Made by a program: the position numbers and the translations under genes
Notes under the pieces: generated by a model
Told to the model about the DNA's origin: nothing
Seen by the model: the letters and a program-made list of their open reading frames with translations, nothing else
Database searches by the model: none
Assembly (NCBI GenBank): GCA_043814035.1
Contig: JBDRKJ010000002.1
Location: forward strand, 136,766-200,765
From: Candidatus Peregrinibacteria bacterium
Lineage (GTDB): Bacteria; Patescibacteriota; Gracilibacteria; Peribacterales; Peribacteraceae
DNA: 64,000 nucleotides
Reading direction: 5' to 3'
Part shown: positions 19,887-55,954 of the stretch, piece by piece
Layout of the letters: each line of letters starts with the position of its first letter
How positions within the stretch are numbered: position 1 is the stretch's first letter

Positions 19887-19928
19887 CAGCTTAAAGCTAC
19901 AAGCTAAAAGCTATAAGCTACCAGCTGA
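19887..19928 (+). repeat. 7-mer tandem array (AAGCTAN x6)
   Basis: cagctta aagctac aagctaa aagctat aagctac cagctga, in the tsaB/GT2 divergent intergenic region. Confidence 0.85.
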
Positions 19929-19931
19929 CCA

Positions 19932-20837
19932 ATGTCTTCCCTCTCCGTCGTCATCCCCACGTTCCGGCGACCAAATATCCTCAGGCTCTGCCTGAAGTGT
20001 CTTGAGGCACAGACTATCGCCGATGAGCTCGAAGTGATCGTGGTGAGCGACGGCCCTGACCCCGAAACAGCAAAGGTATTCCAAGGTCCTACAAGCTATC
20101 AGCTGCAAGCTATCAGCTACCTCGAAATCTCCAAATCGCAACAAGGTGCGGCACGGAACGCCGGTGTGAAGCGGGCCACTGCCCCATTCACTCTCTTTAT
20201 CGGTGATGACATTTTGTTGGATCGAAGCGCTTGCCAGCGACATCTTGAATGTCATGGTGAGCGTAGTCGAACCATGACTCAGAACTTTCATCCATCACCC
20301 TTCGACTACGCTCAGGGTGACATGGCTGTTCTCGGATTCACCACGTGGGATCCCGTCGTCGAAATTACCCCTGTCATGCACTGGCTTGAGCGAAGCGGAT
20401 GGCAATTCGGGTATCCAAAGATCGCGAAGTACGCGCACAACTTCCTGCCAAAGAGAATTCAGGAACGATTCACCTACACCAGTAACATCAGCGTTCCCAC
20501 AGACACCGCACGAACATTTCGTTTTCGTGAAGATATGACCCTCTATGGCTGGGAAGATGTGGAATGGGGGCTGAGAATGAAGCAGGCAGGTATTCGTCTG
20601 TACTACGAACCAGATGCCAAAGCACTGCACCACCACCACATGACACTGCAAGATTCTCTCAGGCGGGCAGAGACGCTCGGCCAATCTCTTGTGGAACTCG
20701 CACATATGAATTCGGCCTTCCGATCGAACCTCGCTCCGTGGCGCCTTCTGTCCCAACGCGCACGATCATTGTTGCCAACAATGGCAGGAAAACATCGCCG
20801 CGCCTTCCTGCGGGGAATGAAGCAAGCGAATCATTGA
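19932..20837 (+). CDS. Family 2 glycosyltransferase
   Basis: LSVVIPTFRR, IVVSDG, ARNAGV, LFIGDD, YGWEDVEWGLR; carries two in-frame repeat-derived inserts. Confidence 0.92.
   Translation: MSSLSVVIPTFRRPNILRLCLKCLEAQTIADELEVIVVSDGPDPETAKVFQGPTSYQLQAISYLEISKSQQGAARNAGVKRATAPFTLFIGDDILLDRSACQRHLECHGERSRTMTQNFHPSPFDYAQGDMAVLGFTTWDPVVEITPVMHWLERSGWQFGYPKIAKYAHNFLPKRIQERFTYTSNISVPTDTARTFRFREDMTLYGWEDVEWGLRMKQAGIRLYYEPDAKALHHHHMTLQDSLRRAETLGQSLVELAHMNSAFRSNLAPWRLLSQRARSLLPTMAGKHRRAFLRGMKQANH
20250..20323. repeat. REP-like palindromic pair translated in-frame within the GT2 gene
   Basis: Arms are exact reverse complements of 941-966 and 974-1002. Confidence 0.9.
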
Positions 20838-40000: not shown

Positions 40001-40876
40001 ATCGGCAAGAAGGCACAACTCATTGCCGACCTCACAATGAAGGACAGTGGCAAGAAAGTGAAAATCGCTGGCCTCGTCGAGAACATTAAGCGCATCACGA
40101 CGAAAAAAGGTGAAACCATGGCCGTGATTCTAATCGAGGATCCGACAGGCAAAATTGAGGCGACACTTTTCCCTCGCATCTATGCAGAATTCGCCACGCT
40201 ACTGGAGCAACCCGACTCTGTATTGGTTGTGGGAGGCACGGTAGATGTGCGTGCCGGTCAATTACAGATTCGCGCCGATGCCCTTAAGCGTGCTGTTCTA
40301 TCAAAGATGATCGCGCACGCTAAAGAAGCAGGATTCTTCGATGAAGAAGAGGCACGTCAGGGCCTCACGCTCACGCGCAAGAGCCTTGAAGAGGCGGAGG
40401 AAGTTGAGGCAGTAGATGAAGAGGGCAATGTCATTGCCGGAGAAACGGTCGCGATAGAAAAAGGGAAGGAGGAACAGAACGAATTCCACGGTCCGCTAAG
40501 TGCTTGGCTGTTGCTCGACATGCCCACCTCAGATCTTCTACAGCAACTTGCTCTCAACGATACCCAACCAACAGCAACATCACCTACTGCAAAAAAGGAG
40601 CTAGGAAAGAAAGCGGCGAAGACGAAAGAGCCCTCTACGGAGCCCAAAACTTATGCCACAGAAATCTCCATCCACACTATTACGTTACCAGAACGGGCAC
40701 CGAAAAAACTCCTGTTGGATCTCAAGCACGTGCTCGAAACATTCCCAGGAAAAGAGAAAGTGCAGCTGAAGATCGGCGAACAGCTCATTCCCCTTCCTCT
40801 CACGATTAACATGTCGACAATTCTCGAAAAGAAAATCGAAGATGTTTTGAGCGCGTACGCGTCTTCTGCTGTGTAA
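37088..40876 (+). CDS. dnaE: DNA polymerase III subunit alpha
   Basis: PHP motif FVHLHCHSTYSLL, GPGRGSAAGS, MPDIDTDF, LLKMDFLGL, GVFQLES. Confidence 0.99.
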   Translation: MKASDFVHLHCHSTYSLLEALPSPKEIVRRAVELRQTAVGLADKGHVYGLVDFYREAKKADLKPILGLETYVAVRTRFDQESGTDTKRYPLVLLAENEEGYRNLLALASLASLEGMYYKPRVDSELLSTYGKGLIALTGPIGGAIPQAALVEDGERIQELTEQYRSFFGKDNLYFELMDLPNVTGQNEVNQQLIAWAKKLNVPLVATCNSHYCHLGDSEAHDVLLCIQKNANVADTTRFSMRDSDFSMRPFEELEQTFAHVPEALENTRVIADRCSVTLELGKYHIPRYPMPEGTTEEAELTRLATEGFVQRYPNATQEQKDRLEHELSIINSMGFSGYFLIVADFINEAKRRGIAVGPGRGSAAGSIVSYSLNITTLDPLEHGLLFERFLNPERITMPDIDTDFADTRRDEVLEYVRNKYGSDRVVQICTFGTLAARAAVKDVGRAYGVPFLEMNALAKLIPERPGTTLKDAMETTELKAAYDANETYRKIIDTAFKLEGKARHVSVHACGVIITPEPTVLYSALQRAPKDDKIIITQYEAKPLEALGLLKMDFLGLTNLTVIETTLEIIQRLYGTQIDMAKLPLDDKATYELLQRGDTTGVFQLESAGMRRYLKQLIPTTFNDITAMAALFRPGPMEWIPSFIKRKHGKEKVEYLHADVEPIFRETYGIGVYQEQILQLARVFAGYSLGEADLLRRAIGKKIKKELDAQRDKFITGAAKKGHNKALSEKIFDDVIMPFAGYGFPKAHAAGYARIAFETAYLKAHFPTEFMAALLSSDAQRTDRVMIEIEECRAMGIQVLPPDINESLRHFTALPSPGGKLVHGTAKKGEIRFGLSAIKGIGDSSVQQIMQVREEGGKFASIEDFARRVPSKVLNKKLLEALAKSGALDSLGERRTLVDHYERIVDYAKSCGDVSAAQHDLFALSDGGMDEALINFPKTLEATTLQKLQWEKETLGMYVSSHPLAGLKKYIGKKAQLIADLTMKDSGKKVKIAGLVENIKRITTKKGETMAVILIEDPTGKIEATLFPRIYAEFATLLEQPDSVLVVGGTVDVRAGQLQIRADALKRAVLSKMIAHAKEAGFFDEEEARQGLTLTRKSLEEAEEVEAVDEEGNVIAGETVAIEKGKEEQNEFHGPLSAWLLLDMPTSDLLQQLALNDTQPTATSPTAKKELGKKAAKTKEPSTEPKTYATEISIHTITLPERAPKKLLLDLKHVLETFPGKEKVQLKIGEQLIPLPLTINMSTILEKKIEDVLSAYASSAV

Positions 40877-41508
40877 TGCGCTCAGTCACTGCTTCGCCGC
40901 AGGCGCTCGAAGAGGCTCTACGCGTTCTTGCTGCAGGAGGTGTAGTCGCCCATGCAACAGAGACCTGCTACGGACTTGCCTGCGATCTCACTAATCCGCA
41001 GGCGGTTACAAAACTCTTTGCGATCAAGAATCGTCCGCAGGATCAACCGGTGAGCGGGCTCTTTGCATCAATAGCCACAGCAAAGAAATACGTTGAATGG
41101 AACACGAAGGCCGAAGAGCTCGCCTCAAAGCACCTCCCAGGCCCCCTCACTCTCATTCTCCCTATGAATGAAGCAGCACGGGAAAAACTCTTCATTGTCC
41201 CAATCCCTAATCCCCAATCCCTAATCCGCGGAATCGGCATTCGTATCTCGAGTCATCCTTTGGCCATGGAACTCGTCAGGCGCTTCGGTAAGCCGCTCTC
41301 GACAACGTCGGCCAACGTACACGGCAGGCCCAATCCCTACTCGGTACAGGAAATTGAGCAGCAGTTTGCCTCCACCAATGTGCAACCAGACCTTATTCTC
41401 GATAGCGGTACGCTCCCACCGACTCCACCCTCAACCATTATCAACCTTTCATCTGCAGGGCAGACACGCACACATCGTCAGGGCGACCTTTCTGTCGAGG
41501 ATCGCTGA
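40876..41508 (+). CDS. tsaC: L-threonylcarbamoyladenylate synthase (TsaC/Sua5/YrdC)
   Basis: TETCYGL, IKNRP, PGPLTLIL, TTSANVHG, PSTII. Confidence 0.93.
   Translation: MRSVTASPQALEEALRVLAAGGVVAHATETCYGLACDLTNPQAVTKLFAIKNRPQDQPVSGLFASIATAKKYVEWNTKAEELASKHLPGPLTLILPMNEAAREKLFIVPIPNPQSLIRGIGIRISSHPLAMELVRRFGKPLSTTSANVHGRPNPYSVQEIEQQFASTNVQPDLILDSGTLPPTPPSTIINLSSAGQTRTHRQGDLSVEDR
41200..41227 (+). repeat. 7-mer tandem array (CYAATCC x4) inside tsaC
   Basis: ccaatcc ctaatcc ccaatcc ctaatcc; translated as PIPNPQSLI. Confidence 0.85.
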
Positions 41509-41562: not shown

Positions 41563-42009
41563 ATGTACTGCCCGCGATGCAAAGCGACCGACACGGCGGT
41601 TATCGACTCGCGTCTCGCAGAGGATGGCCGGGCAATTCGCCGTCGGCGCGAGTGCACCAAGTGTAATCATCGTTACACAACATTTGAGCGCCAAGAACTT
41701 AGCAACCTCATCGTCATCAAGCGTGACAGCACCCGTGAACCATATAGTCGCACCAAGCTCGAACGCGGTATTTGGCTCGCCTGTTCCAAGCGCCCGATTT
41801 CGCAGGAGAAGATTGACCGTCTGCTCACCAAATTGGAAGAGAAATGGGGTGGCAACCGTAAGGAGGTATCAAGCTCCACCATCGGCACTGATGTGATGCG
41901 AGAATTGAAGAAGCTCGATACCGTCGCCTACATCCGATTCGCTTCTGTGCATCGCGAATTTAAAGATGTGCAGGAATTTAAGAAGGAATTGGGGCAGCTT
42001 TTGAAGTAA
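41563..42009 (+). CDS. nrdR: Transcriptional repressor NrdR
   Basis: MYCPRC, VIDSR, IRRRRECTKC, RYTTFE, VAYIRFASV. Confidence 0.97.
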   Translation: MYCPRCKATDTAVIDSRLAEDGRAIRRRRECTKCNHRYTTFERQELSNLIVIKRDSTREPYSRTKLERGIWLACSKRPISQEKIDRLLTKLEEKWGGNRKEVSSSTIGTDVMRELKKLDTVAYIRFASVHREFKDVQEFKKELGQLLK

Positions 42010-42039
42010 GAAAAGTAAGGAAAGGCAGGAAGGTAAGGA
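42004..42039 (+). repeat. 9-mer tandem array x4, left arm
   Basis: aagtaagaa aagtaagga aaggcagga aggtaagga. Confidence 0.85.
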
Positions 42040-42064
42040 AGGGGTTCTCTGCTATGATTTTATT

Positions 42065-42427
42065 ATGCTCAGAAGAATGGACATTGGCTTCCGCAGGCTC
42101 ATTATCTGGCAAGAGGCAAAAAAGTTGGCCCTCAAAATCTATGGAGTAACAAAAGCATTTCCTAAAGAGGAGCAGTTTCACCTCGTGACACAAATCCGCA
42201 GAGCTGCCACGTCAATTATGGCAAACATTGCAGAAGGATCGGCAATGCAGACACGGGCACACCGTGATGCTTTTTACGGTAGGGCACGGGGCTCTGTGGC
42301 AGAAGTGGATGCATTTATTGAGTTGAGTTCCGACCTGGATCTGATATCAAAAGCAGATGCAAACGATATTGCTGACCATTGCGCTCGTTTGAGCTATCTT
42401 CTTACCCAATTACTGAAAAGCAAGTAG
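42065..42427 (+). CDS. Four helix bundle protein (23S rRNA IVS-protein / TIGR02436-like family)
   Basis: FRRLIIWQEA, FPKEEQFHLVTQIRRAATSIMANIAEG, ARGSVAEV. Confidence 0.92.
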   Translation: MLRRMDIGFRRLIIWQEAKKLALKIYGVTKAFPKEEQFHLVTQIRRAATSIMANIAEGSAMQTRAHRDAFYGRARGSVAEVDAFIELSSDLDLISKADANDIADHCARLSYLLTQLLKSK

Positions 42428-42443
42428 CTTTTCTGTTCCACTT

Positions 42444-42479
42444 TCCTTACGTTTCTTACGTTCCTCACCTTCCTTACCT
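42444..42479 (-). repeat. 9-mer tandem array x4, right arm (inverted)
   Basis: tccttacgt ttcttacgt tcctcacct tccttacct; the reverse complement matches the left-arm unit AGGTAAGGA. Confidence 0.85.
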
Positions 42480-42480
42480 C

Positions 42481-44250
42481 ATGTTACGTACGCACACCTG
42501 TGGCGAACTCACGGCAAAGAACGCGAAGGAAGAAACAACAACGCTCTGTGGCTGGGTGCACCGGCGCCGTGACCACGGAGGGCTCATCTTCGTCGACCTG
42601 CGAGACCGTTACGGTTTCACGCAGATCGTGTTTGATCCTGAGAACAAGGCAGTCTTCACCACGGCCGAAAAGATCCGCCCCGAGTGGGTACTCAAAATCA
42701 CCGGGACGGTGCGCAAACGTGTGGAAGGCGCAGAACGGAAGGAGAATCCTACAGGAGAGATAGAAGTGATCGCGGAAGAACTTGCGGTCCTGAGTGAGGC
42801 GAAGACCCCACCTTTCGAAATCGATCAGGAGAAGGAGGTCAACGAGGAGCTCCGGCTCCAGTATCGCTTCTTGGATCTTCGGCGCCCTACCTTACAAAAG
42901 ATGATGCAGAAGCGGGATGCCTTCATTGGACATATCCGTACCTACATGCACAGCAAGAATTTTACTGAGGTGCAGACCCCCATCCTCGCCAATTCTTCGC
43001 CAGAGGGAGCGCGTGACTATCTCGTCCCGAGCCGACTGCACCGTGGCATGTTTTATGCCCTTCCACAGGCTCCACAACAGTTTAAGCAGCTCCTTATGGT
43101 GGCGGGGCTCGACCGTTACTTTCAGATCGCCCCTTGTTTCCGTGACGAAGACCCCCGTGCAGACCGACACCCAGGTGAGTTCTACCAGCTTGACCTGGAA
43201 ATGAGCTTCGTCACACAAGAGGATGTGTTTGAAGCTGTGGAACCTCTTATGGCGGAACTCACGGAACGCTTTAGTGATAAAAAGGTCCTGCAGAAACCAT
43301 TCCCTCAGTTCACATGGAAGGAGATCTTTGACCGCTACGGATCAGACAAGCCCGACTTGCGCTTCGGTTTGGAGCTCACGGATGTTACATCTCTCTGCAA
43401 GGAGTGCGGATTCTCCATCTTTGCCGATGCCGTTGCTCAGGGGGGAGCGGTAAAAGCGTTGAGAGTCGCCGGCGGTGCAAAATTTTCTCGCAAGGAGATT
43501 GATGATCTCACAGAGGCCGCTTGGACATTCGGTGCCAAGGGGCTTGCGTGGATGAAGATGGCTAAGGGGAAACTCGAAGGTGTGCCCGCGGCGAAGTTGG
43601 GACCCGATCTCGCTGGAAAAATCGCCGAACAGCTCAAGTTAGAAGAAGGAGACATTGCCTTCTTTACAGCGGATAAATGGCTCATCGCATGTCGCTCAAT
43701 CGGTCAGGTTCGCGCCGAGATCGGCAAAAAACTCAAATTGGCTGATCCCAAGGCAGCCGCGTGGGCATGGATAAAGGATTACCCCATGTACGAGTGGAAT
43801 GAGCAGGAGAAGAAGGTTGATTTTTCGCATAACCCCTTCTCGATGCCGCAGGGTGGGATGGAGGCGCTGGAAGCGAAAGATCCTCTTTCGATTCTTGCCT
43901 TCCAGTATGACCTTATTTGCAACGGCTTCGAGATCAGCTCCGGAGCCATCAGAAATCACAGTCCGGATATTATGTACAAAGCATTTGGTATCGCCGGATA
44001 CACGAAAGAGGATGTTGATCGAAAATTTGGCGGCATGATCCGCGCTTTCCAATACGGTGCCCCGCCGCATGGCGGCATCGCTCCGGGTATTGACCGCCTC
44101 ATGATGGTGCTCTGGGAATGCCCGAGTATTCGTGATATCTATGCGTTCCCCAAAAATGGTAAGGCGCAGGATGTCATGATGGGGGCTCCGTCTGTTGTTT
44201 CTGACGCACAGCTCAACGAACTGGGCATCTGCGTTGTCGAGGAAAAGTAA
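42481..44250 (+). CDS. aspS: Aspartate--tRNA ligase
   Basis: MLRTHTCGEL, RRRDHGGLIFVDLRD, PEGARDYLVPSR, FRDED, GAPPHGGIAPGIDR. Confidence 0.98.
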   Translation: MLRTHTCGELTAKNAKEETTTLCGWVHRRRDHGGLIFVDLRDRYGFTQIVFDPENKAVFTTAEKIRPEWVLKITGTVRKRVEGAERKENPTGEIEVIAEELAVLSEAKTPPFEIDQEKEVNEELRLQYRFLDLRRPTLQKMMQKRDAFIGHIRTYMHSKNFTEVQTPILANSSPEGARDYLVPSRLHRGMFYALPQAPQQFKQLLMVAGLDRYFQIAPCFRDEDPRADRHPGEFYQLDLEMSFVTQEDVFEAVEPLMAELTERFSDKKVLQKPFPQFTWKEIFDRYGSDKPDLRFGLELTDVTSLCKECGFSIFADAVAQGGAVKALRVAGGAKFSRKEIDDLTEAAWTFGAKGLAWMKMAKGKLEGVPAAKLGPDLAGKIAEQLKLEEGDIAFFTADKWLIACRSIGQVRAEIGKKLKLADPKAAAWAWIKDYPMYEWNEQEKKVDFSHNPFSMPQGGMEALEAKDPLSILAFQYDLICNGFEISSGAIRNHSPDIMYKAFGIAGYTKEDVDRKFGGMIRAFQYGAPPHGGIAPGIDRLMMVLWECPSIRDIYAFPKNGKAQDVMMGAPSVVSDAQLNELGICVVEEK

Positions 44251-54853: not shown

Positions 54854-55687
54854 TCAAAACACGAGCTGAATTTCCCCCTCCTGAGCCGTGCTCCGCATGG
54901 GGATGTGGGCATCTTGCAACCGTTGCAGAGTATCGGGATGTGGGTGGCCGTAGTCATTGTCTCTTCCTACAGAAATAATAGAGAGACGGGGATGGACGGC
55001 GGCAAGAAATTCTTCGGAGGAACTAAAACGGCTGCCGTGGTGCCCAACTTTCAACACCTGTGCCGAGACGTCGATGCCGGAAGCGAGCAATACCTCCTCT
55101 CCTTTTTCACTAAGGTCTCCGGTAAAAAGGATGGATCCGGTACCGTAGATCGCGCGCAACACGATGGAGTTGTCATTGTCCTCGGCATCGCGTACGGGAT
55201 TCGGAGGCCAGAGAATGTCGAGCATTACGCCATCCTGTAGATCGATATCTCGCTGCGGGTCTGTGGCAACGAGCGGTACGCCCTGCTCGCGCACGATTGC
55301 GAGCAATGCCTTATACGGCTCTTCGTCATTCTGTATTGCAGGGAGCAGGAGCGCACCTACTTTGAACCTTCGAAATACCTCCGGGAACGCCGTGAAGTGA
55401 TCGGGGTCGGGATGCGAGAGGATGAGCAGATCAATAGATCGGTGTGAGAGGGGTAGGCTTTTCCCCAATGCCTCCAGAGCAGAGAGATCGGGCCCACCAT
55501 CAATGAGCACAGTTTTTCCTGAGGGAGTCGTGAGAAGGGCGGCGTCACCCTGCCCTACATCAAAGAATTGCACTGTCAGATTCCCTTTGGGAATTCGCTT
55601 AAGCTCACGGATGAGAACGAGCGATGCCCCCACGAGGATGACGCAGCAGATGAGGAGCGGACGTCGAAAGTGAGGAGGCACTTGCAT
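54854..55687 (-). CDS. ComEC/Rec2-type metallo-beta-lactamase-fold protein
   Basis: FDVGQGDA, SHPDPDH, NDNSIV, FTGD, KVGHHGS, NDYGHPH. Confidence 0.9.
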   Translation of the reverse strand: MQVPPHFRRPLLICCVILVGASLVLIRELKRIPKGNLTVQFFDVGQGDAALLTTPSGKTVLIDGGPDLSALEALGKSLPLSHRSIDLLILSHPDPDHFTAFPEVFRRFKVGALLLPAIQNDEEPYKALLAIVREQGVPLVATDPQRDIDLQDGVMLDILWPPNPVRDAEDNDNSIVLRAIYGTGSILFTGDLSEKGEEVLLASGIDVSAQVLKVGHHGSRFSSSEEFLAAVHPRLSIISVGRDNDYGHPHPDTLQRLQDAHIPMRSTAQEGEIQLVF

Positions 55688-55837
55688 AGAGCAGGCTACT
55701 TTACAATTTTCGGTTAGGAATGCCACATTTCTTTCGGTCTCATTTACTGGAATTTCCTCCATCCCCCTTACCCCTTCCTCCTGTGGAGGAAGGGGGGGTA
55801 CCTCAAACAGTGGGACAATCACAGACACATACATATT

Positions 55838-55910
55838 CCCCCCCTCTTGCCTGCCCGTCCGAAGCTTAAGAAGGAGCGAAGGAGGGTGGAGAGGGGGCTA
55901 GGGGGAGAGG
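55838..55910. repeat. GC-rich REP-like hairpin with a nested CCTGCCCGTCCGAAGC repeat
   Basis: CCCCCTCT...AGAGGGGG arms enclose a copy of the 1069-1084 repeat. Confidence 0.65.
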
Positions 55911-55954
55911 TTCAGTGAAAAAAGAGAGGAGAAAAGGGGAGAGAAAAAACCGAA

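Follow-up and report, generated by a model that had tools for sequence, protein, structure and literature searches.

A PF05635 gene enclosed by inverted tandem arrays between nrdR and aspS: a probable intervening-sequence-type hairpin cassette outside rRNA

We describe a small cassette that separates nrdR from aspS in the genome of a Candidatus Peregrinibacteria bacterium (GCA_043814035.1, here G000; 1.23 Mb in 12 contigs, C1-C12), within a window of 64,000 nucleotides that corresponds to C2:136766-200765; positions given without a contig are those of the window. The cassette consists of a gene for a 120-residue protein of the PF05635 family, known as S23p or intervening sequence (IVS) protein, enclosed by two inverted arrays of short tandem units. 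The reading that we favour, and regard as reasonably probable, is that the locus is an IVS-type hairpin cassette situated outside rRNA, the arms of which probably serve as binding arrays for its own pentameric protein. The inverted-array architecture is the rule for the PF05635 family across phyla and, in the two phyla that were sampled at the genome level, heptamer arrays are almost restricted to genomes with a gene of the family.

Results

The cassette between nrdR and aspS

The left (5′) arm (42002-42040, on the plus strand as are all features of the locus) consists of 4.1 tandem 9-mers of the AAGTAAGGA type, which Tandem Repeats Finder places at 42004-42040 with 78% matches to that consensus, and it is G-rich and C-poor (14 G, 1 C). 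The right (3′) arm (42443-42481) is the reverse complement of the left array and holds 3.9 copies of period 9 with the consensus TTCCTTACG (42443-42477, 80% matches). An inverted-repeat search aligns the two arms over 39 nt at 77% complementarity and 402 nt apart, with a core that is complementary at 12 of 12 positions (42031-42042 and 42468-42479). Between the arms lies the gene for the four-helix-bundle protein (42065-42427; 120 aa, pI 9.6). The cassette fills the spacer base for base: as read directly, the nrdR stop codon TAA (42007-42009) falls within the first left unit along with the last codons of nrdR (41563-42009; PF22811, 1.3e-19; PF03477, 2.3e-17), and a single C (42480) stands between the last right unit, which ends at 42479, and the ATG (42481-42483) of aspS (42481-44250; PF00152, PF02938, PF01336). 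The initial annotation of this locus, made from the letters of the window, had described this arrangement correctly throughout.

Flanks were scored by Smith-Waterman: the upstream flank was aligned locally with the reverse-complemented downstream flank, and the best score was taken. The nrdR-aspS locus scores 34, a value that 3 of 3000 placements chosen at random in this genome attain (mean 15.6, 99th percentile 23), and a score of at least 26 is reached by 2 of 353 other small genes of the genome. The minimum-energy fold of 41995-42490 pairs both arms, and the arms alone reach -39.0 kcal/mol as compared with -28.0 ± 4.0 for shuffles of the right arm, the best of which reaches -40.7. A terminator scan found no intrinsic terminator-like site, that is, a short GC-rich stem followed by a T run, at the arms.

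An extended -10-like string, TGCTATGAT (42050-42058), lies 6 nt before the ATG of the PF05635 gene; it is kept in G001, a same-genus relative with the same cassette, and is kept as TGCTATGCT in hairpins without an open reading frame (ORF) at the same site in three further relatives (G002, G006, G008). The sigma-70 consensus scan did not call the string because it lacks a -35, and inspection by eye of 61 of the 121 loci analysed below revealed no box at a constant distance before PF05635 genes. The gene's own -10, as first annotated, is thus present as a string and absent as a called promoter.

The encoded protein

The ORF matches PF05635 ('23S rRNA-intervening sequence protein'; E 5.8e-33, 113.7 bits against a cut-off of 33.8, profile positions 2-105 of 106) and TIGR02436 ('four helix bundle protein'; E 7.6e-30, 103.3 bits against a cut-off of 24), and these scores, above both curated cut-offs, assign it to the family. 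The closest solved structure by sequence is 2gsc_A (XCC0516; E 6.3e-15), an entry of five chains, and by its likeness to this sole solved relative the protein of the locus probably forms a pentamer. A dN/dS of 0.21 against the G001 ortholog indicates that the ORF is under purifying selection. The only ORF at the locus matches PF05635 and no transposase, a transposase acting in trans not having been searched for; the proposal of a discrete cassette of the IVS protein family, outside rRNA and lacking a transposase, therefore held. To our knowledge no function has been assigned to the S23p/IVS protein family since the 1990s, despite its solved pentameric structure. The family is akin to Avd, a protein of diversity-generating retroelements (DGRs).

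The inverted-array architecture across loci and phyla

The host genome holds 12 PF05635 matches, 10 of which exceed the cut-off. Flank scores of at least 24 were found at 9 of the 12 loci, and a tenth (C7:79967) scores 24 after widening of the upstream window. The arm units vary by locus (GGGATTCGG, GGGCGTAG, AGCTGGTAG, GAAGCTT, GGCTCGTT and others). The closest paralogs, C10:65638 and C4:78074, are 75.5% identical over 404 nt and share a further 24-nt block of the right arm; their homology is bounded by the outer edges of the left and right arms, their flanks are unrelated, and in both the left arm starts a few bases past the stop codon of the upstream gene. As the homology ends at the outer arm edges, the arms belong to the gene unit and not to pre-existing local sequence, and arm, ORF and arm duplicate as one unit.

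Within the phylum, PF05635 is present in 119 of the 201 sampled genomes (0.4-2.1 Mb), in up to 17 copies. Among the best loci from 29 other genomes of the phylum, 22 have a flank score of at least 26, as compared with none of 169 shifted in-locus controls. For the scan across phyla one genome was taken per species, an alignment of eight proteins yielded 593 relatives, and the best 80 loci were used; by record title 26 of these are of the candidate phyla radiation (CPR) type, 52 belong to other phyla and 2 are unassigned. The other phyla among these best 80 include Acidobacteriota, Bacteroidota, Clostridia, Gammaproteobacteria and Desulfobacterota, as well as Planctomycetota, Chloroflexota, Elusimicrobiota, Fibrobacter and Kiritimatiellota. 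In the same set a flank score of at least 26 is found at 22 of 26 CPR-type loci (cross-locus controls, 3 of 46) and at 39 of 52 loci of other phyla (cross-locus controls, 11 of 225), and some of the control matches arise because distant loci share one heptamer. Examination of the flanks at other family loci, proposed at the outset as a check, thus returned a strong enrichment of inverted tandem arrays (9/12, 22/29 and 39/52). The unit flavours TAGCTnn, YAGGGAT and YAGTGGT are common to the host genome and to an Acidobacteriota-titled genome (G239), which may reflect a limited repertoire of flavours or horizontal spread.

The anatomy of the arms was examined at 121 loci. A strict tandem-array detector found arrays upstream at 66, downstream at 73 and on both sides at 50, with an equal period on the two sides in all 50 of these, and an array in 1 of 242 control windows. 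The period is 7 in 60 of the 66 upstream arrays and 9 in 2. AG occurs in 53 of the 60 heptamer consensus units, with T (28) or C (13) before it and T (31) or G (12) after it, and copy numbers peak at 4 (41 arrays) and 5 (31 arrays; n = 123), giving a typical arm of four to five tandem heptamers with the consensus YAGKNNN. At 29 of 39 loci the upstream and downstream units are reverse complements of each other, with one mismatch allowed. The 5′ arm is rich in G and poor in C (289 G against 88 C; G exceeds C at 29 of 34 loci). Stops in all three frames are carried by 83 of 139 arrays read inward and by 47 of 139 read on the other strand, as compared with 11.8% of shuffles. The arms, which had been taken for incidental microsatellites, are instead a hallmark of the family, usually four to five heptamers with a conserved AG and with the G-rich arm 5′ on both strands. 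We rejected the G-rich left arm as a sign of orientation relative to the ORF: the hairpin is strand-symmetric, and all 19 ORF-less hairpins of the host genome likewise have the G-rich arm 5′. Since the hairpin reads alike on both strands, the G-rich 5′ arm is a matter of chirality.

Dispersed arrays and their link to PF05635

Counting arrays of period 7, 8 or 9, or doubles of these, with at least 2.5 copies, the host genome contains 127 tandem arrays. An arm of some PF05635 locus is matched by 72 of these but by only 12 of 127 shuffled arrays. Arrays of the flavour of the nrdR-aspS locus occur at 13 other places in the genome, those of the AGCTGGTAG flavour at 14 and those of AGGGCGT at 7. Arrays are enriched in non-coding sequence (47 of 95 in a crude 9% of the genome), and the ORF-less tandem-array hairpins number 19.

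We then counted matches to YAGN4 x4, a pattern in which YAG holds the same place in four successive heptamers. Within the phylum, at least 10 matches are found in 60 of the 119 genomes with PF05635 but in 4 of the 82 without it (medians 10 and 1; the counts include the unpublished genome G192, with one copy and no matches). A second phylum was sampled around an Acidobacteriota-titled genome, with two unpublished genomes dropped. There, 37 of the 58 genomes that have PF05635 reach at least 100 matches to the pattern plus its reverse, but none of the 41 that lack it; at least 40 matches to the YAG pattern alone are found in 30 of 58 and 1 of 41, respectively. The match numbers reach thousands, far above the supply from the genes' own arms. 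From genome to genome, the array population thus goes with the presence of PF05635.

The nrdR-aspS site in relatives

Of 41 related genomes, 40 yielded an NrdR match; 30 loci were fetched, and in 19 of these nrdR and aspS share a strand and are both contained in the locus. The PF05635 gene is not fixed there, and close relatives are polymorphic at the site. Seven genomes of the same genus have the locus. The cassette recurs in G001 (94% protein identity), where it follows a duplicated stretch of 13 codons from the nrdR 3′ end, and G003 has a PF05635 gene that is 61% identical and has different purine/pyrimidine arms. An ORF-less hairpin of 115-121 nt, with homologous arms, a TTTCTGCTATGCT edge and a loop of ~20 nt, occupies the site in G002, G006 and G008, and G007 holds an unrelated insert of 685 nt. 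In G004, whose NrdR is 100% identical, the spacer is 70 nt long and devoid of arrays, and synonymous changes affect the last three codons of nrdR as well as the start of aspS. No target-site duplication is visible against this array-free G004 allele. As array-free alleles differ over the whole spacer and at synonymous sites, the polymorphism looks like allele replacement, and the array-free allele looks like a replaced spacer, not like an empty target left by clean insertion or excision. Of the empty junctions for which the initial annotation proposed to look in relatives, the variable presence of the gene is confirmed and the clean junction is not.

Metagenome contigs from two lake-water runs (X2, X4) join 41999 to 42487 with 82 other letters between, and contigs from two groundwater runs (X1, X3) cover the gene; all of these are of low depth, were placed at 85% likeness and possibly come from related populations. 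No RNA run is listed for this stretch. In other genera, unrelated tandem-array hairpins lie directly past the nrdR stop (L021, L028, L031), or there are other inserts. One such locus (L024) has a GIY-YIG gene between nrdR and aspS, bracketed by small palindromes of the TGTCATGGTGAGCG..GTCGAACCATGACA type.

By eye, a TATACT-like box precedes the aspS ATG by 6-8 nt in most relatives (L013-L034), a position that suggests leaderless aspS transcription in the family. The box is missing where an array abuts the aspS ATG, in G001, in G006 and in the host genome itself.

Discussion

We propose a model for the cassette that most reasonably fits these observations. Each cassette would comprise a PF05635 (S23p) gene with an array of short tandem units on either side, the two arrays being inverted relative to each other and acting as binding sites for the encoded basic protein at one unit per subunit. 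If the arrays are bound by the encoded protein, gene and arrays together make up one self-associated system, much as a RAYT gene does with the REP elements on its two sides, and the ORF-less hairpins would be its non-autonomous members. As the arrays are inverted, the transcript of the spacer can fold the arms into a stem of ~36-39 bp, which would be a substrate of the type that RNase III is known to cut in rRNA intervening sequences; the genome encodes RNase III and, by this analogy, excision at the locus is plausible. Cleavage would separate the nrdR, cassette and aspS messages, and aspS, which here has no -10 box of its own, would be left dependent on upstream transcription. Indeed, because the array abuts the aspS ATG, aspS may depend on read-through and processing. 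Finally, given the stop triplets in the 5′ arms, translation that runs in from either side would terminate, and these arms may in this way insulate the cassette from incoming ribosomes.

Two systems provide useful comparisons for this model. RAYT genes encode Y1 HUH transposases, REP (repetitive extragenic palindromic) elements are single palindromes, and REPINs are hairpin-forming pairs of them. The cassette resembles this system in that a single gene is flanked by inverted copies of a short element, in that the element is dispersed in the same genome, mostly as hairpin-forming pairs, and in that, as nearly holds for PF05635 and its arrays, genomes lacking the gene lack the element too. The gene itself is different, the product here being a 120-aa four-helix bundle without a known catalytic motif in place of a Y1 HUH transposase, as is the element, a tandem array of 7-9-mers that occurs in several flavours, with several genes, per genome. 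TRAP, a ring-shaped homo-oligomer, binds one (G/U)AG repeat of RNA per subunit. By pure analogy, the pentamer-forming PF05635 family is found beside four to five repeats with a fixed AG; the fold differs. A miniature inverted-repeat transposable element or an insertion-sequence-type element was considered and rejected, the arms differing between copies except in one paralog pair.

The nearest published relatives are the 23S rRNA IVSs with an S23p ORF, as in Coxiella and Leptospira. For that of Coxiella, the available passages of PMC4990558 describe a terminal stem of 28 bp within which RNase III cuts, a loop that contains the S23p ORF, and a 5′ arm with three or four tandem GACAGAT heptamers in variable number; the same passages describe the ORF as decaying and cite the structure of the Xanthomonas protein as a homopentameric toroid (2gsc). 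Passages of a survey of rRNA insertions in the CPR (bioRxiv 10.1101/2024.02.27.582315) place the 23S_rRNA_IVP domain in insertions of both 16S and 23S rRNA. As far as these sources go, the locus shares with the rRNA IVS the same protein family in the loop, the existence of ORF-less versions, the absence of a transposase, a 5′ arm with short tandem repeats and a long stem made by terminal inverted repeats; here a stem with an ORF in its loop is given by the 39-nt arms, paired in the minimum-energy fold. In contrast to rRNA IVSs, which lie in helix 25 or 45, the locus lies between two protein-coding genes, its units are 9-mers and not heptamers as in Coxiella, and its ORF is under purifying selection where that of Coxiella is decaying. 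RNase III excision, with no ligation afterwards, is a feature of the rRNA IVS and, at the locus, a prediction.

Tandem arrays of the same general kind have been reported from elsewhere, again according to passages of the papers concerned. In Geobacter metallireducens, paired sites on opposite strands with 3-5 tandem 7-9-mers (GTTGCTYN, TCTCCGTS[Y], MTYCTGA) are read as targets of global regulators that have yet to be identified (PMC2700814). TAACTGA direct repeats in 2-6 copies occur in Beggiatoaceae, cyanobacteria and Bacteroidetes, with translational control as the proposed role (MacGregor 2015, PMC4679880); in Beggiatoaceae there are 169 direct sets and one inverted set, and the largest TAACTGA class ends 1 nt upstream of a start codon, as the right arm does at aspS. 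GGGAATC heptamers in Xanthomonas include 70-75 convergent inverted pairs and were read as G-quadruplex (G4) formers, and GGGGAYT heptamers occur in Nostoc (Rehm et al. 2015, PMC4692102). Like the PF05635 arms, these arrays have a period of 7-9 and 2-6 or 3-5 copies, are often convergent inverted pairs at variable distance and often abut a start codon, and flavours found here (GGGATTC/GGGAATC-like, GTTGCTYN-like and YAG-containing) recur in those reports. The term 'S23' does not appear in the passages of these three papers, 'four helix' not in those of PMC2700814 and PMC4679880, and 'intervening' not in those of PMC4679880 and PMC4692102. In the literature searched, which left subscription journals and supplements largely outside, we found no publication that links PF05635 to flanking or heptamer repeats.

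More tentatively, and with less confidence than we place in the reading of the locus itself, PF05635 proteins may be the missing trans-acting partner of 7-9-mer arrays in general, a pentameric ring reading four to five AG units and the protein maintaining or spreading the ORF-less arrays. Each paralog would then sit between inverted arrays of its own flavour, the AG units would be read as TRAP reads (G/U)AG, the protein would be required for ORF-less arrays as RAYT is for REPINs, and the classical rRNA intervening sequences would be copies that landed in rRNA. If true, this would join the S23p/IVS family, which has lacked a function, with heptamer arrays as one system of a protein and its cognate repeat. 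Such arrays have been reported separately, in Geobacter, in Beggiatoaceae and cyanobacteria, in Xanthomonas and Nostoc and in the Coxiella IVS, each time with a different proposed role. The basis for joining them is that PF05635 genes are bracketed by arrays across phyla, that arm-ORF-arm units duplicate whole, and that arrays are nearly confined to PF05635 genomes. Locally, the cassette displaces the -10-like box of aspS, and the expression of an essential synthetase may depend on the reading or cutting of a hairpin.

The arms might instead matter by pairing alone, as a pure RNA intervening sequence whose loop is excised by RNase III, with the repeats as a by-product of slippage and the protein irrelevant. 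Such a reading draws on the pairing of the arms in the minimum-energy fold, on the RNase III gene of the genome, on the RNase III cleavage reported for rRNA IVSs with the same ORF (PMC4990558, in part) and on the ORF-less hairpins, which parallel the ORF-less IVSs of rRNA. A stem requires no periodicity, yet period 7 and a fixed AG are found across phyla with copy numbers that peak at 4-5; an excess of G.U pairs is absent, unpaired direct arrays are the rule in Beggiatoaceae (169 direct against 1 inverted in the passages of PMC4679880), and genomes without the protein are nearly free of arrays. We therefore consider pairing alone an unlikely explanation. Nor do we think it probable, ranking it lower again, that PF05635 is a passenger that preferentially inserts into, or survives in, the loops of an independent intergenic element (terminator-like, a translational operator or a G-quadruplex), as it does in rRNA helices. 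Cassettes are indeed far outnumbered by ORF-less hairpins, three relatives have ORF-less hairpins at the nrdR-aspS site itself, and the published readings, as seen in passages, do not involve this protein: G4 (PMC4692102), translational control (PMC4679880) and sites for global regulators (PMC2700814). An independent array should, however, also occur without PF05635, where none of 41 genomes reached 100 matches and 4 of 82 reached 10. Furthermore, paralogs share arms and their homology ends with the arms, so the arms travel with the gene, and many flavours have no G-runs, so G4 formation is not a general explanation.

Two further explanations have very little to recommend them. That the gene is a DGR accessory gene (Avd) or a remnant of such a retroelement is suggested by weak matches (bAvd, PF22296, 20.8 bits; NF033474, 22.9 bits) and by the two reverse transcriptases of the genome, but both models score far under their cut-offs (40 and 80 bits, respectively), and the reverse transcriptase genes (C3:61755 and C2:254713) adjoin Avd-like genes of their own (C3:63219 and C2:253162), the nearest to the locus being ~75 kb away on C2; the Avd-like gene of C3 has no arms (flank score 17). 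Equally remote is an origin of the arms by chance, or by neutral slippage that left microsatellites beside an ordinary small gene. The arms consist of purine/pyrimidine sequence of low complexity and a shuffled right arm occasionally equals their pairing (-40.7 against -39.0 kcal/mol), whereas the random-placement, shifted, cross-locus, control-window and small-gene controls all contradict chance and the architecture recurs in many phyla.

Several results weigh against the binding-array cassette that we favour. That the protein binds the arrays is something that we purely infer. The association between arrays and PF05635 has not been corrected for phylogeny and the relatives are non-independent; part of it stems from the PF05635 genes' own arms, counts of the reverse pattern, intended as a control, increase with PF05635 copy number too, since many units fit either pattern, and the 46 single-copy genomes have a median of 1.5 array matches. 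With regard to the stem, the arms pair in the minimum-energy fold as the initial annotation had envisaged for an imperfect stem looping out the gene, but the fold of the whole 496-nt region is ordinary (z -1.23, with 10 of 100 shuffles equally stable). By the RNAduplex energy of 130-nt flanks the 12 loci of the genome were not separable from 1500 random placements, and this statistic was replaced by the stringent local alignment because long GC-rich random flanks pair equally well. Arm pairs taken from different genomes (G000, G001, G002, G006, G008) fold as well as the cognate pairs, so that covariation cannot be shown with such purine/pyrimidine repeats. Between arms, 893 positions are Watson-Crick, 38 G.U, 38 A.C and 114 other, and as G.U shows no excess over A.C there is no sign that pairing is selected in RNA. 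The 9-mers of the locus are themselves a minority period in the family, seen in 2 of 66 upstream arrays. Finally, proteins that are 70-77% identical may have units that differ at 2-3 positions, so unit specificity, if any, is loose or fast-evolving, and protein identity tracks unit similarity weakly (rho 0.17, reached by 0 of 300 permutations), a correlation that common descent alone could yield.

Other features of the genome and window

Upstream of nrdR, the window encodes a Sua5/YrdC-family protein (40876-41508, plus strand; Pfam match to Sua5_yciO_yrdC). An inverted pair at 55094-55931 (C2:191859/192669), which encloses part of a 326-aa minus-strand ORF, was rejected as a further cassette for want of tandem character (periodicity scores 0.31 and 0.48). 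The 23S rRNA gene (C1:37184-41676) measures 4493 nt against a model of 2925 positions and thus contains ~1.5 kb of insertions; none of these matches PF05635, and none of the 12 PF05635 matches of the genome lies on C1.

The two weak PF05635 matches that adjoin the reverse transcriptases, C3:63219 and C2:253162, are probably true DGR Avd genes. The region C3:61755-63521, where the second reverse transcriptase stands beside the weak Avd-like match without tandem-array arms, is probably an ordinary DGR. At C2:252200-255450, GAAGCTTGAAAC-type arrays lie between four or five small genes, among them the Avd-like gene (C2:253147-253488) and a PF05635 gene (C2:253634-253978), with the reverse transcriptase (C2:254713-255414) downstream; the cluster looks like a DGR interleaved with array hairpins. 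Its cassette-like part (C2:252-254.5 kb) invites comparison, purely by analogy, with integron gene cassettes, which have an attC site at the 3′ end and an IntI integrase nearby.

On C7 (C7:124682-124762 and C7:125400-125520), an ORF-less hairpin with the flavour of the cassette at C7:125515-125877 is situated beyond the neighbouring 199-aa gene, the start of which (MNF[VI]VLSSSRGT) is duplicated beside that cassette. Within the window, two AGCT-flavour heptamer arrays are found at 19888-19926 and 20092-20119, the first ending 5 nt before the ATG of a glycosyltransferase-like ORF and the second lying in frame inside that ORF. Dispersed REP-like palindromes occur at 20249-20323, 945-996, 1069-1113 and 1987-2038, and comprise a CCTGCCCGTCCGAAG-type element and the TGTCATGGTGAGCG..GTCGAACCATGACA type, one copy of which is in frame inside the glycosyltransferase-like ORF.

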